A stretch of 64,000 bases of DNA. Origin: Candidatus Latescibacterota bacterium. Lineage in GTDB: Bacteria; Latescibacterota; UBA2968. The position numbers and the translations under genes are program-made. Of this stretch, positions 36,204 to 60,078 are shown in pieces (within the stretch, counting starts at the first letter, position 1; each line of letters starts with the position of its first letter). The stretch spans positions 192,001 to 256,000 of the forward strand of contig OZ242320.1 in NCBI GenBank assembly GCA_965208125.1, in the 5' to 3' direction. Below the pieces are notes generated by a model, which saw only the letters and a program-made list of their open reading frames with translations, was not told the DNA's origin and ran no database searches.

Positions 36204-36219
36204 TGCAACATGCGTGCCA
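36204..36219 (-). promoter_or_regulatory. sigma54 -24/-12 promoter (cassette 4)
   Basis: TGGCAC-GCATG-TTGCA. Confidence 0.85.
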
Positions 36220-36293
36220 CATAAATTGTTTCAAGCAATATATATCCATAAAGTATTATTTTTATTACATATAATTTATAGAACTAATAAAAA

Positions 36294-36425
36294 AAGCCAA
36301 GCTGTGTTTTTGCCGAAAGGACCATATATGACCCCCAAAACAACCAGAATGGCTCTTATATTATTTATTAACAGACATTTATAATTAAAGGGTCATATTT
36401 AACCCTAAAAGACCAAATGTGACCC
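36294..36425. promoter_or_regulatory. Putative enhancer (UAS) array, variant type
   Basis: Three related 16-mers GGACCATATATGACCC, GGGTCATATTTAACCC, AGACCAAATGTGACCC upstream of an AT-rich tract. Confidence 0.55.
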
Positions 36426-39400
36426 TCACTGAGGACGTCTAATACCCAGCTTTCTCATTTTGCCATACAGAGTAGAAGACGGTAGTTTCAGCAGAGCCGC
36501 TGCCCCCCTGGCCCCCTTTATCTGCCAGTTGGTGACTTTGAGCACTTCGAGGATATAGCGGCGTTCAAATTCATCCCAGGGCATGATTTCGCGGTCTTGA
36601 TCTAACTTGTGATCGGAAGCTGCGCCTTCGATTCGGGAACCATACAGTCCCAGATCACCCACTTCGATTTGAGAACTGTGGCACGCAATTACAGCACGCT
36701 GCATAGTATGCTCCAATTCCCGCACATTCCCAGGCCAATGATAGTTTTGCAACACCTCTATGACCTCAGAATCCAGGCGATCAATTTGCTTGCCTATATG
36801 TGCCACCAGGCGACTCTTAAAAAACTCGGCCAGGTCCGGTATGTCCTCCTTGCGCTCGCGCAGAGGCGGCAAATAGATCGGAAAAGCATTGAGGCGATAA
36901 TAGAGATCTTCGCGGAAATCACCCTTGCTGACCATCTCCTTCAGATCGCGATTCGTCGCTGCCACGATCCGCGTCTGCGCCGTCAGTATCTCGCTGCCCC
37001 CAACGCGCTCAAACGTCCCCTCTTCCAGCAAGCGCAGCAACCTGGCCTGCGTTTCCAGAGCCATATCGCCAATCTCATCTAAAAAGAGCGTACCGTCCCT
37101 GGCCAGTTCCACCCTACCCAGCCTGCGAGAAACTGCGCTGGTAAACGCCCCTTTCTCGTGACCAAACATTTCACTATCGATCAGCGATTCAGGCAACGCA
37201 CCACAGTTGACCTGTATAAAAGGCCCATCGCTATAGACACTCAGCCCGTGTAGTGCCCGCGCTGCCAGTCCCTTACCCACACCCGTCTCGCCTGCAATTA
37301 GCACCGTCAGATCGGCGGAGGCCACCTCTATGAGTTTGATTTGAAACTCGCGCAGAGCCGCGCTATGACCGATAAACTCATTGCTCCCTTGACTATTGAG
37401 TACAGCAGTCAGTTCTTTAATACGTGGATCAGGCTCGACCGAGATTTGTACCCGCGCCATCTGCGAGTAATTGAGATCGCGATCTACAGCCCGGACTTGA
37501 AAGGTGTAATCTCCCGGTGGTAAGTCTCGATAATAGACCCGCATCTCTCGGGTCGCGGGCTGCCAGTCGTGATCGTAGCCCTTCAAGCGGTAAATATAGA
37601 GCATATCGCTGGGATGGGTCGAAAAACTCAGACCCTTATACTCGAAAATCACCTGCTGATCCGTCGTAGATACGATGGCTTCTTCCAGGTTCTCATAGAC
37701 CTGATCAACTACAACTTGAATCAGGCGAACTATAGGCGGAATTTGCCGCAGGCGGTAGCGTACTATAGATCCCTCGGCAGTGCCAAACCAGAAGGTTCCG
37801 TCGCGATCTTCGAGTATCTGAAGAACGGGTCCTATATGTGGTGACTTGATGGTCTGGAAAAGTAGCCCATCGTAGTGAACCACACCTCCATCCGTGCCGA
37901 GCCAGAGGTGTCCACGCGAATCCTCGAACAAGCAACGGATGCGGTTGCTCGGCAAACCGTCTTCAGTGGTAAAGTTGCGAAAAACAATACCATCAAAGCA
38001 ACTGAGCCCCCTCTGAGTGGCGATCCACAGGTTGCCAGCGCGGTCTTCCAACAGGTCGGCAACCCGGTTATCTAACAACCCATCCGAAACAGTATAAAGA
38101 GAAATCCCATCTTCTGGATGCCACCGTCCAATGCCCTTGCCACTACCGAAGGGGTTGTGGGTACCCACACTAAACCAGAACTCTCGGTTGCGTCTGACGA
38201 TCAAGGTACCGATGTGGTTAAATGGATCTTCTTTTTCTTCCTCCTCAAAAACAAGTTGAAACTGTCCACCTCGGTGGTAAACGATTTGCAGTGGACTGGC
38301 AAAAAGCTCTTCTCTTTTTTTAGTCGTGCCATTTTCCCAATGCCCCAGAATCAGCTGTCCCTCCTGATCCTCGGCGATTGCGCTGACCCCCACCTCGCCA
38401 AAACCCTCGGTGGAGTGAAAGCCCTGCCCGTCATAGCGGAACAGGCCATTGCCGCCGCCAAACCACACATCACCATCGCGGTCTTCGTAAATGGCGAAAC
38501 AACTGTTGAGATCGAGACCCTGTGCGGCTCCGACAAACTCAAAGTGCTCGCCACTAAAGCGCGCGAGACTTTTGATTGTGAGGCTCAGGAATGGAGAGGA
38601 AAATCCGATCCATATATCCCCTCGTCGATCCTGCAACATCTGCGAGATTTCGCTATCGCCTTCGGGAGAATCTTTTCCAGGGTCGAAAAGACCGATACTA
38701 TATGCATCGTAGAGTACTACACCACCGCCCCATGTGGCGAACCAAAACTGATACTCGCGGTCCTGGAACACGGCATTGACAATGGGATAGGGCAAACCAT
38801 CAGCAGGAGTGAAACTGCCAAATTCATCGGGATTCTGATAGAGCACGCCTTCCGAAGTGCAGAACCACATCCGCCCTTCGCGGTCACACTGAATTTTGCG
38901 CAGGTTACCACCGAGGTCCACGGGAACACGATGGAAAGTGCCATCGGCATAGCGCCAGAGTCCGTCCCGCTGCCCGTACCGACCAATCCACACATAGCCT
39001 GTACTATCTCGCCCCACCGCGTAGTTACTCTGGTCCAGAGGAAAACCCTCTTCCTCGTCGTAGCGGTGGAACGATTCACCATCAAAGCGGATGAGGTAGT
39101 CAAAACCAAACCACAGGTGGCCTTCCATATCCTGGGTAATGCCCCAACACTGATTGGTCCACTGAGGAGAAGGCGGCTGCTCGTAGTGCCGGAGATAGAG
39201 CGGAATCAAATCGCAGAAAGCAGTGCCATCGTAATACCCCAGGGTATTCGTGCCACCGCACCATATACGCCCCTCACGATCTTCGTAGATGAACTGTGCA
39301 GATCGGCCTGCGATCCCCTCGTCCTCCAAATGGTGGAAATTTGCTCCATCATACCAGCAAACGCCACTCATTGTACCGAACCACAATCGCCCTTGACTAT

Positions 39401-39617
39401 CCTTGTGGATGGCAAAAACTCGATCGCCGCAAAGACCATCCTGTCGGGTAAATGTCTGAAACGCATCCCCGTCAAATCGGCTGACACCATTGTCCCAGGT
39501 AGCGAACCAGAGATACCCCTCGCTGTCTTCTACAATGTGTTCGGTGCGCACCCCAGCCAAGCCATTGGCAAGGGAATACGTCCGCCAGGTACCCGTGCGG
39601 TCGAGTGGCTTAATCAT
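36426..39617 (-). CDS. sigma54-dependent activator: beta-propeller (Reg_prop) sensor + Y_Y_Y + AAA+ + Fis HTH
   Basis: Many D..G.LW.GT repeats; [53 protein letters not shown]-terminal HTH. Confidence 0.92.
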   Translation of the reverse strand: MIKPLDRTGTWRTYSLANGLAGVRTEHIVEDSEGYLWFATWDNGVSRFDGDAFQTFTRQDGLCGDRVFAIHKDSQGRLWFGTMSGVCWYDGANFHHLEDEGIAGRSAQFIYEDREGRIWCGGTNTLGYYDGTAFCDLIPLYLRHYEQPPSPQWTNQCWGITQDMEGHLWFGFDYLIRFDGESFHRYDEEEGFPLDQSNYAVGRDSTGYVWIGRYGQRDGLWRYADGTFHRVPVDLGGNLRKIQCDREGRMWFCTSEGVLYQNPDEFGSFTPADGLPYPIVNAVFQDREYQFWFATWGGGVVLYDAYSIGLFDPGKDSPEGDSEISQMLQDRRGDIWIGFSSPFLSLTIKSLARFSGEHFEFVGAAQGLDLNSCFAIYEDRDGDVWFGGGNGLFRYDGQGFHSTEGFGEVGVSAIAEDQEGQLILGHWENGTTKKREELFASPLQIVYHRGGQFQLVFEEEEKEDPFNHIGTLIVRRNREFWFSVGTHNPFGSGKGIGRWHPEDGISLYTVSDGLLDNRVADLLEDRAGNLWIATQRGLSCFDGIVFRNFTTEDGLPSNRIRCLFEDSRGHLWLGTDGGVVHYDGLLFQTIKSPHIGPVLQILEDRDGTFWFGTAEGSIVRYRLRQIPPIVRLIQVVVDQVYENLEEAIVSTTDQQVIFEYKGLSFSTHPSDMLYIYRLKGYDHDWQPATREMRVYYRDLPPGDYTFQVRAVDRDLNYSQMARVQISVEPDPRIKELTAVLNSQGSNEFIGHSAALREFQIKLIEVASADLTVLIAGETGVGKGLAARALHGLSVYSDGPFIQVNCGALPESLIDSEMFGHEKGAFTSAVSRRLGRVELARDGTLFLDEIGDMALETQARLLRLLEEGTFERVGGSEILTAQTRIVAATNRDLKEMVSKGDFREDLYYRLNAFPIYLPPLRERKEDIPDLAEFFKSRLVAHIGKQIDRLDSEVIEVLQNYHWPGNVRELEHTMQRAVIACHSSQIEVGDLGLYGSRIEGAASDHKLDQDREIMPWDEFERRYILEVLKVTNWQIKGARGAAALLKLPSSTLYGKMRKLGIRRPQ

Positions 39618-59532: not shown

Positions 59533-59700
59533 GGTTAAGAAACCTCATGATATGGGTGAAAAAAACTCTACTCCTCCCTCAAAATATCATGCTACATCCC
59601 AGCCAATCTTCTTTTGAATCAGTAATTCTAATTACTTTTGACGCTTTACCGCTTCAATAGTTCGGATCCTTAAAGAAAATATCAATTCTGTTTGAAAAGA

Positions 59701-59716
59701 CGCAATATGCGTGCCA
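59701..59716 (-). promoter_or_regulatory. sigma54 -24/-12 promoter (cassette 1)
   Basis: TGGCAC-GCATA-TTGCG. Confidence 0.85.
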
Positions 59717-59793
59717 ACGTGAATCTCTTGAGGTGATTCTAATCATAAAAGATTATTTTTAATCAAGATATAATTTTTTTTATAAATAAAAAA

Positions 59794-59848
59794 CCAGACT
59801 GTACTATATCTTCATGGACGATAGGTCGTCCATGAAGAGTCAATCTGG
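59794..59848. promoter_or_regulatory. Palindromic enhancer (UAS)
   Basis: Perfect 13-bp arms TCTTCATGGACGA-tagg-TCGTCCATGAAGA, flanked by CCAGA/TCTGG. Confidence 0.7.
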
Positions 59849-60078
59849 CTTCTTTAAATCCTAACTATATGTAGAGTTTTTCAATAAAAGTCTTTATATC
59901 GTCTAAAAGATTATATATCGCCCTTATTAAAAAATATTTCTGACTCGTTTACGCAACGCCCAGCCGGGATATTTATCCGGGTCGATAAACACTTGTCCCA
60001 GATAGAGAGACCTTCTGGGATCGCGCGTCGCCTCCATCTCTTCGAGAGCAGGGCGCGCTTCATTATTCATATCCATCG

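Follow-up and report, generated by a model that had tools for sequence, protein, structure and literature searches.

Sigma-54 regulatory modules predicted in Candidatus Latescibacterota: HTCS-type propeller activators beside cassettes with a dyad in a terminator-like hairpin

When sigma-54 promoters and their activator genes alternate along a chromosome, do they form one regulatory circuit, or a row of separate modules standing side by side? The question is raised by a window of 64,000 nucleotides from a Candidatus Latescibacterota genome (assembly GCA_965208125.1, contig OZ242320.1, positions 192,001 to 256,000; positions below are those of this window, and those marked C1 are genome positions). 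On its minus strand, three paralogous activator genes (A, B and C) and four similar intergenic cassettes (P1 to P4) stand in the order P1, A, P2, B, P3, a giant protein, a PL8-family lyase, a DUF4955 protein, a DUF1961 (YesU-like) protein, C, P4 and an operon, as an earlier note on this DNA had laid them out. That note saw in them a single self-amplifying circuit. We consider it reasonably probable that they are instead autonomous, lineage-specific modules, each composed of an activator, a cassette and an operon, in which the activator would act mainly on the cassette behind its own gene. Across related genomes the same site, between an aminotransferase and a beta-helix gene, holds different module sets.

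The general scheme in which a bacterial enhancer-binding protein (bEBP), its upstream activating sequences (UAS) and integration host factor (IHF) serve a sigma-54 promoter is described in PMC7175178. A table in that review divides bEBPs into five groups by regulatory domain (response regulator (RR) or PRD; PAS, V4R or ACT; GAF; none; RR without a DNA-binding domain), with no propeller among them. The activators and cassettes of the window are the following.

56335..59532, minus strand: activator A, 1065 aa, with Reg_prop repeats, Y_Y_Y, Sigma54_activat, AAA_lid_14 and HTH_8
54920..55942, minus strand: activator B, 340 aa, with Sigma54_activat, AAA_lid_14 and HTH_8 only, sensorless
36426..39617, minus strand: activator C, 1063 aa, domain architecture as in A, 77% identical to A
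59702..59923, minus strand: cassette P1, distal sites at 59909-59923 and 59890-59904, TGGCAC-N5-TTGC at 59702-59716
59794-59850, minus strand: P1 hairpin, apex dyad GGACGACCTATCGTCC at 59816-59831, T-run at 59786-59793
59744-59760, minus strand: P1 AT-rich box
56042..56308, minus strand: cassette P2, distal dyads within 56245-56308, -24/-12 element at 56042-56056
56130-56192, minus strand: P2 hairpin, apex GGACTATATATCGTCT at 56155-56170, T-run at 56124-56129
56084-56100, minus strand: P2 AT-rich box
54701..54910, minus strand: cassette P3, -24/-12 element at 54701-54715, AT-rich box at 54743-54759
54791-54852, minus strand: P3 hairpin, apex AGACGATATACCGTCT at 54815-54830
36205..36425, minus strand: cassette P4, sites GGGTCACATTTGGTC at 36411-36425 and AGGGTTAAATATGACCCT at 36389-36406, -24/-12 element at 36205-36219
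36294-36355, minus strand: P4 hairpin, apex GGGGTCATATATGGTCC at 36319-36335, T-run at 36288-36293
36247-36263, minus strand: P4 AT-rich box

All three activators match Sigma54_activat (PF00158) at 213-220 bits and share Walker A, Walker B, the R-finger (RVGG) and HTH_8; the sensor parts score 166-172 bits for Reg_prop and 45-47 bits for Y_Y_Y. When compared with the Protein Data Bank (PDB), the sensor part of A matches the sensor domains of hybrid two-component systems (HTCS; 4A2L at E 1e-40 and 3V9F at E 5e-35), and its motor part matches NifA, ZraR, NtrC, FleQ and PspF at E 1e-56 to 6e-77. The Pfam scan of A and C detected no HisKA, HATPase_c, receiver or AraC-type HTH. Since no hydrophobic segment or signal peptide is found in A, B or C (no 19-residue Kyte-Doolittle window exceeds 1.6, the maxima in A and C being 1.20 and 1.33), the three proteins are, judged from their sequences, cytoplasmic. 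In B the AAA+ domain begins at residue 33, with no regulatory domain on its N-terminal side. The recognition helix of B is identical to that of A, as is a 22-residue stretch of the HTH, within an AAA+-HTH part that is 73% identical overall, and the helix of C (PSSTLYGKMRKL) differs. An origin of B as a recent partial copy of A was rejected, because at 73% identity it is no closer to A than to other paralogs; that B is a truncated ortholog of the activator encoded ahead of P1 in the closest relative finds no support either, the two being 75% identical. No NCBIfam model reached its cut-off for A, B, C or any protein of the P4 operon.

The earlier note had described sigma-54 promoter and enhancer cassettes beside three paralogous enhancer-binding proteins, which these domains confirm, and rpoN is present in the genome (5.75 Mb, one contig) as a 497-aa open frame at C1:4983347 with a Sigma54_DBD score of 201 bits. 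It had also proposed a sigma-54-based alternative to HTCS. This is borne out by the match of the A and C sensors to HTCS structures and by all eight Y_Y_Y domains of the genome, every one of which lies directly upstream of a sigma-54 AAA+ domain on the same protein. The genome has 29 matches to the sigma-54 AAA+ domain in total. An exact -24/-12 box also occurs at C1:4984930 (plus strand), about 1.1 kb downstream of the match to the RpoN DNA-binding domain.

From the alignment it is clear that the four cassettes, each of about 230 bp, are homologous, with a mean column identity of 73%. The window contains exactly four exact TGGCAC-N5-TTGC matches, all on the minus strand (shuffle mean 0.20; none of 100 shuffles reaches four), and these are the four boxes that had been claimed, each one position higher than previously given, where the numbering was probably 0-based. 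Read 5' to 3', every cassette has two distal dyads, a terminator-like hairpin whose loop holds a third dyad, an AT-rich box and the -24/-12 element. The shared AT-rich tract expected from the earlier description is present on the coding (minus) strand as AAAAATAATACTTTATG in P2 and P4, AAGAATAATACTTTATG in P3 and AAAAATAATCTTTTATG in P1, and its 3' end lies 27 nt from TGGCAC in P1 to P3 and 28 nt in P4. The dyad that had been placed about 105-120 bp from the -24 box was likewise found; in all four cassettes its 5' end precedes the T of TGGCAC by 114-115 nt. Two or three enhancer sites of 14-18 bp with an ATAT-like centre are predicted per cassette. The genome has four genes of the HU/IHF family.

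The promoter-proximal dyad is the apex of the hairpin. RNAalifold on 24 cassettes gives a 10-pair outer and a 6-pair inner stem, with compensatory changes at 10 of the 16 pairs; stem cells are paired in 92% of cases, against 80% in shuffles (0 of 500 reach the observed value) and 28-54% when the partners are slid. In the outer stem, G.U or U.G occupies 38 cells and A.C or C.A a single one, and because of this excess the stem is read as a sense-strand RNA structure rather than a DNA palindrome. The four hairpins of the window have fold energies of -36.5 (P1, z -9.3), -29.9 (P2, z -7.0), -24.4 (P3, z -4.5) and -21.1 kcal/mol (P4, z -2.9), each followed by a U-rich tail, of which that of P3 (UUCUCUAUUU) is the weakest. 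We therefore read the hairpin as a predicted intrinsic terminator that would insulate the sigma-54 promoter from the preceding gene.

Full-length relatives of A were found in 75 of 168 genomes of the phylum (E <= 1e-120); relatives carry the name Candidatus Latescibacterota, some being Gemmatimonadetes at NCBI. A protein search returned 5101 matches among 8000 scored candidates, and the best 120 share the domain set and carry generic names only. One match from Flavobacterium (L010), considered as a fusion outside the phylum, was rejected as an ordinary 445-aa open reading frame (ORF). The genome has 63 exact -24/-12 matches. A profile built from 12 sites of the cassette type recovers those 12 and adds three at E <= 7e-6 (C1:903726, 1547815 and 5383251) and two weak matches, one of them a decayed relic; this genome has about 16 cassettes. 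Across 48 distinct cassettes, taken from this genome and its relatives, conservation is highest at TCAcaTTGGCAC-N5-TTGCa and at the AAAATAA...TTTA(T/C)G box, and the dyads diverge. The 520 nt downstream of 75 activator 3' ends were inspected, and a cassette lies there in 42 of the 75 (some places were fetched twice, and 38 rows are distinct).

The genes behind the cassettes are often giant secreted proteins with leucine-rich repeats (LRR) and dockerins, as at C1:1551557 (1612 aa), C1:4815697 (1611 and 1495 aa) and C1:2211403 (1478 aa, with an M66 peptidase domain). The cassette at C1:1256005 precedes a 670-aa protein and then envelope proteins, that at C1:3587858 has only another propeller activator downstream, and other targets include a P450/GPP34 fusion with a sulfotransferase, a redoxin, an epimerase, and LacI-type and TonB-dependent genes.

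The cassette at 998342 (C1:997700-998360; L020:4817-5360) is preceded by only the last activator codons (...PPSTLYGKMRKLGIKIP) and no full gene; this tail and cassette are a near copy of those at 3587858, and a GPP34/P450 fusion and a sulfotransferase follow. The decayed relic (C1:1370140-1370300; L030:12140-12300), which follows a tRNA-like 3' end, still has a GGACGATATACCGTCT dyad, the right hairpin arm and the box, with no TGGCAC. A shortened activator (C1:71262-72446; L031:7248-8462) has Y_Y_Y, AAA+ and HTH in a 713-aa frame (404 aa from the first ATG) and is missing most of the propeller. At C1:3584130-3591240 (L021), two full-length propeller activators with G-type and S-type helices stand in tandem, the downstream one with no cassette behind it.

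The exact -24/-12 boxes of the genome also include other kinds. Eight belong to a second promoter family, marked by ATTGCTT in the -12 region and by a GGACACTT... tract that is conserved about 65 nt upstream of the box (C1:441275, 519203, 2055494, 2063837, 2077411, 2085839, 2094547 and 3776598). A third family (C1:499687, 1792956, 1800451, 2465457 and 2912757) has AAATTTTATCTC...TTGTTTTTCAAGCACTTGAG...CAAGTGCTTTTTTTT, a terminator-like palindrome, directly before TGGCAC-N5-TTGC, and some of its boxes closely follow other genes for sigma-54 activators, for instance at 498514 (1649-aa frame) and 2464293 (1117-aa frame). Exact boxes at C1:3294876-3305019 and 3834680 fall inside repeated coding sequence (...FSPDGT.LAS) that looks like WD40 repeats, and look like chance resemblances within genes.

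Dyad sequences change together with the recognition helix of the activator whose gene stands just upstream, which makes it most likely that each activator serves the cassette behind its own gene. Half-sites agree within a cassette: P4 has GGGTCAcatTTGGTC, AGGGTTaaatatGACCCT and GGGGTCatataTGGTCC, and the 1551k cassette has three copies of CC(A/G)TATA(C/T)GG. They differ between paralogous cassettes and are kept among orthologs; GGnC(C)ATATATGGnCC, for example, is common to C, L055, L059 and L060. Helix and apex were compared by eye in a table of 39 rows, 33 of them distinct, in which six out-of-register rows were left unscored. With S at helix position 2, the half-site is CGAT or GGGCGA in 8 of 10 distinct rows; with T it is GACGTTATAACGTC in all three rows; with N or G it is CC(A/G)T in 10 of 14 scorable rows. 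The switch occurs on both Y and F backgrounds (FSKIKR with GGGCGA, FNKIKR with GGACCAT), and two cases from another family of the phylum agree with the pattern. Within the window, the apexes of P1, P2 and P3 are of the form GAC(G/T)A-N4-(T/C)CGTC and go with the helix of A and B, and the apex of P4 is of the GGnCCAT type and goes with the helix of C (PSSTLYGKMRKLGI).

On the modular reading, the window would hold three tandem copies of one Candidatus Latescibacterota regulatory module. Its first part would be a cytoplasmic one-component bEBP with an HTCS-type Reg_prop/Y_Y_Y propeller, of which B is a sensorless, PspF-like version; its second the stereotyped cassette of about 230 bp directly behind the activator gene; and its third the target operon. 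As RNA, the hairpin and T-run would terminate the upstream transcript; as DNA, the dyad in the loop, 114-115 nt before TGGCAC, and the two distal dyads may seat three activator dimers, which would form a hexamer and open the sigma-54 closed complex at the predicted start sites, and the AT-rich box occupies the usual place of IHF-type bending sites. Two lines of control are predicted. In the first, sensor A would act through P2 on B, a relay or amplifier, and B through P3 on a giant GH5/LRR surface protein and the PL8 lyase; this chain from A to P3, which had already been proposed, agrees with the adjacency rule, under which activators would serve the cassettes that follow their genes. In the second, sensor C would act through P4 on a secreted glycoside hydrolase (GH), two lipoproteins, a GPH-type importer and a cytoplasmic GH3. 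Cleavage outside the cell and import of oligomers would then supply the putative ligand that the cytoplasmic propeller of C detects, leading to more expression from P4. The modules would have been joined at a recombination hot spot and not designed as one cascade.

However, a number of observations weigh against this reading. Loop L1 of A, B and C reads GAFTSA and not GAFTGA, with F and T kept and the fifth residue S. The AT-rich box has no convincing match to the E. coli IHF consensus. In the cassette at C1:2211403, the hairpin and T-run are kept although it faces away from the activator and has no same-strand upstream gene that would need a terminator. No cassette lies within 520 nt downstream of 33 of the 75 activator genes, and in a second family of the phylum a cassette was found in only 2 of 10 readable loci (in 10 of the 20 fetched, no HTH tail was recognized by pattern); the adjacency rule is therefore a tendency of the genus, not a law. 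The helix-to-dyad association, suggestive as it is, comes from few ortholog groups that are related by descent, and was scored by eye; the remaining 4 of the 14 G-helix rows are hybrid CGAT/CCAT sites, all of the tandem pair type 3589k/3585k. A and B share their helix, yet the apex dyads of P2 and P3 differ (GGACTA... and AGACGA...). Finally, P1, P2, P3 and one decayed relic are the only places in the genome with the A/B-type apex pattern, but by our own arithmetic about 11 occurrences per genome are expected by chance, so that only its placement, not its rarity, is informative.

The genes downstream of P3 and P4, and the hairpin at the PL8 end, are the following. Because the listed ORFs overrun the promoters, two starts, those of the giant protein and of the first P4 gene, were moved downstream.

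44783..54658, minus strand: giant protein, 3291 aa from the ATG at 54658, hydrophobic N-terminus, predicted to be secreted or anchored
41462..44752, minus strand: PL8-family polysaccharide lyase, 1096 aa, with Lyase_N, Lyase_catalyt, Lyase_8 and Lyase_8_C and a signal-peptide-like N-terminus
41464..41504, minus strand: terminator-like hairpin at the PL8 end, 14 pairs, loop of 3, followed by the T-run GTTTTTTGC, overlapping the last PL8 codons
40456..41352, minus strand: DUF4955 protein, 298 aa
39614..40492, minus strand: DUF1961 (YesU-like) protein, 292 aa, its stop overlapping the start of C by 4 nt
27401..36138, minus strand: P4 operon, five genes from GH to GH3
33022-36138, minus strand: secreted GH-A-clan TIM-barrel protein, first gene of the P4 operon
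32450-33025, minus strand: lipoprotein-like protein of 191 aa, P4 operon
30705-32453, minus strand: lipoprotein-like protein of 582 aa with an Exop_C/galactose-binding-like domain, P4 operon
29209-30666, minus strand: MFS_2/GPH-type symporter, P4 operon
27401-29212, minus strand: cytoplasmic GH3, P4 operon
26025-27284, minus strand: beta-helix protein, after the P4 operon

The giant protein, whose most likely start at 54658 (MPKLLNRC...) has GGAG 8-9 nt upstream, contains a dockerin, eight fn3 stretches, a cadherin domain, a GH5 cellulase domain, LRR arrays and Ig-like domains. The C-terminal part of the DUF4955 protein resembles the end of the BT3328-family hyaluronic acid endo-lyase, at a score far below the cut-off. 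For the first P4 gene the most likely start is 36138, and MMNRYLL...VWA/QP would be its signal peptide; a PDB search with this protein gave no match. The earlier note had called these genes a beta-glucan uptake operon. That label is a family-level guess only; the matches to GH3 and to the GPH-type transporter are below the curated cut-offs. Among the scanned ORFs between 23 and 64 kb, Pfam detected no SusC/SusD pair.

Could all of this nevertheless be one integrated, staged circuit, in which A acts on P1 and P2, B amplifies through P2 and P3, and C, made last in the P3 operon, switches on P4? Such a circuit would account for the apex dyads that P1, P2 and P3 share at the same distance, for the identical helices of A and B, and for the position of C, which overlaps DUF1961 and has no cassette of its own. 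There are parallels as well. Activator-cassette-activator pairs recur in related genomes, one type (L002_up followed by A) in G003, G015 and G004 and another (3589k/3585k) in G000, G008, G015 and G003. At C1:1550k an activator has a cassette on either side, and the half-sites of the two are alike. Both serial wiring and autoregulation are thus designs that recur in the family. Because the P1 dyad is of the same class as those of P2 and P3, positive autoregulation of P1 by A and B appears likely from the dyads. The earlier proposal that A primes itself is thus plausible, with the 1550k activator as a parallel. In the closest relative, P1 stands behind another activator gene, one missing from this genome.

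The comparative maps argue against a single circuit. In G015, the closest relative (A ortholog 95% identical), the order is GT2, aminotransferase, another full-length activator, P1, A, a P2/P3 hybrid cassette, the giant gene, DUF4955, DUF1961, further genes and the beta-helix gene, with no B, PL8, C or P4 operon. The extra activator there is itself preceded by a degenerate cassette (L002:2226-2289) in which the box is kept and TTAGCAC-N5-TTAC replaces TGGCAC-N5-TTGC. In G003 (L045, L101) the same hybrid cassette leads directly to the giant gene, with no B between them. This hybrid joins the upstream half of P2 to a P3 core, as unequal recombination between cassettes would leave it. In G005, GT2 and the aminotransferase are followed by an activator, DUF1961, C, P4, the whole P4 operon and the beta-helix gene, and A, B and the giant gene are missing. 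In G002 the order is GT2, aminotransferase, DUF1961, C, P4 and the operon (GH, p191, ExopC, MFS and GH3), with no activator or sigma-54 cassette ahead of DUF1961 and C, and no beta-helix match in the fetched stretch. Thus, at one and the same site, two relatives have C, P4 and the operon by themselves, and another has A and the giant gene without C and P4. No B ortholog above 77% identity was found in 40 relatives, and the two closest genomes do without it.

Within the window, the circuit would also require P3 transcription to reach C. The 14-bp terminator-like hairpin and T-run at the PL8 end lie upstream of DUF4955, DUF1961 and C, so that the P3 transcript may largely end before these genes; the link from P3 to C is therefore weak, and the statement that C is made with the secreted enzymes is doubtful. 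A sigma-70 scan of 36-56 kb gave 27 sites against 25.7 in shuffles, which has no bearing on a separate promoter for DUF4955-DUF1961-C. A TTGCTG-N16-TATAGT sequence after the PL8 hairpin was noticed by eye only. On balance, the earlier proposal is supported only in part, and we regard one integrated circuit as unlikely.

By analogy with HrpR/HrpS, A and B might instead form mixed hexamers on shared dyads, making P1 to P3 one hetero-complex regulon rather than a relay. The 22 identical HTH residues, kept in spite of 73% identity in the AAA+-HTH part, and the frequency of adjacent paralogous activator genes are consistent with this, and so are the hybrid half-sites CGCGATATATGGTG in the cassette between the 3589k/3585k pair, whose helices are of the G and S types and whose product may be a heterodimer. 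The closest relatives, however, do without B, and we judge this explanation improbable.

Still less probable, in our opinion, is that the dyads are mere terminator tips, with the activators binding elsewhere and the cassettes serving as ordinary terminator-plus-promoter spacers. It is true that each apex dyad sits within a hairpin that is followed by a U-run and shows G.U pairing specific to one strand. The distal sites, however, lie outside the hairpin and repeat the apex half-sites (three of the GGGT(C/T)A/TGACCC type in P4, three CC(A/G)TATA(C/T)GG in 1551k), the half-sites track the helix of the neighbouring activator, and the distance to TGGCAC is fixed at 114-115 nt. That the cassettes are repeated non-functional intergenic elements with boxes kept by descent only, as their copy number and the relic without -24/-12 might suggest, is hardly credible. 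Among 48 distinct copies, drawn from many species, the box and -24/-12 are the best-conserved parts and the dyads diverge; every copy faces a downstream gene; and rpoN and 29 AAA+ activator matches are present.

The modular reading can be extended into a bolder one, which we offer as a tentative possibility. In Latescibacterota, an HTCS glycan sensor would have been re-used in cytoplasmic bEBPs and expanded into a programmable family with a simple code (S or T at helix position 2 for CGAT or CGTT, N or G for CC(A/G)T), an enhancer placed in the terminator loop of the preceding gene, where a single element would insulate as well as activate, and chains rewired by homologous recombination between cassettes, in which a two-sensor chain would be an AND gate and a sensorless member an amplifier; the main targets would be giant LRR/dockerin proteins and operons of carbohydrate-active enzymes (CAZymes).

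The bEBP, the UAS sites, the bending box, the sigma-54 promoter and the terminator are all of known kinds. Compared with classical bEBP promoters (NtrC-glnAp2, NifA-nifH, XylR-Pu), the system is alike in its AAA+ and Fis-type HTH, in dyads about 100-200 bp upstream of TGGCAC-N5-TTGC and in an AT-rich element between them, but differs in the propeller regulatory domain, the proximal UAS in a terminator loop, the cassette repeated about 16 times and GAFTSA. With Bacteroides HTCS (4A2L/4A2M, 3V9F) it shares the sensor family, by sequence, and the link to polysaccharide-degrading genes; there, however, the sensor is periplasmic and flanked by membrane segments, and here it is cytoplasmic by prediction, HisKA, HATPase, receiver and AraC are missing, and the output is a sigma-54 AAA+ with a Fis-type HTH. 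Unlike a Sus-type polysaccharide utilisation locus, it has no SusC/SusD among the scanned ORFs, and uptake is predicted through the MFS_2/GPH-type symporter. LevR/CelR-type control in Firmicutes also places sigma-54 and a bEBP over carbohydrate genes, with sensing through phosphorylation of PRD/EIIA by the phosphotransferase system (PTS), whereas this locus has a beta-propeller sensor and no PTS parts. Cascades in which one activator gene is under the sigma-54 promoter of another are known from Myxococcus xanthus development and from flagellar regulons (FleQ to FleR, FlrA to FlrC). The links here differ in being tandem, built on one repeated cassette and formed by paralogs of one sensor family, and recombination would make and break them in relatives. 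B resembles PspF and HrpR/HrpS, placed in group 4 in PMC7175178, in having only AAA+ and HTH, and like HrpR/HrpS it adjoins a paralog; however, no PspA-like partner is evident, and B is apparently controlled at its own sigma-54 promoter.

Open-access papers and preprints yielded nothing on Reg_prop or Y_Y_Y with sigma-54, or on sigma-54 in Latescibacteria or Latescibacterota. As far as this search reached, there is no description of an HTCS-type propeller serving a bEBP as cytoplasmic sensor, of a cassette with its enhancer in a terminator, of the module's expansion in Latescibacterota or of its shuffling by cassette recombination. If the modular reading is correct, the beta-propeller, a glycan-type sensor, would be a sixth kind of regulatory domain for sigma-54 activators, and giant surface enzymes in an uncultured polymer-degrading phylum would be controlled without HTCS, SusR or ECF-sigma. 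The cassette could serve as a regulon predictor for these genomes, by scanning for it and reading its dyads, and may be a natural source of activator/enhancer pairs that are orthogonal to one another; a few purified HTH domains would suffice for a direct test of the helix-to-dyad pattern.

Two further genes border the region. Just beyond the P4 operon, an IS605 OrfB/TnpB-like gene (HTH_OrfB_IS605, OrfB_IS605 and Cas12f1-like TNB) lies at 24693-25832 on the minus strand, and a HerA-like ATPase (DUF87 and HAS-barrel) is encoded at 62412-63986, also on the minus strand, upstream of GT2 and the aminotransferase gene.

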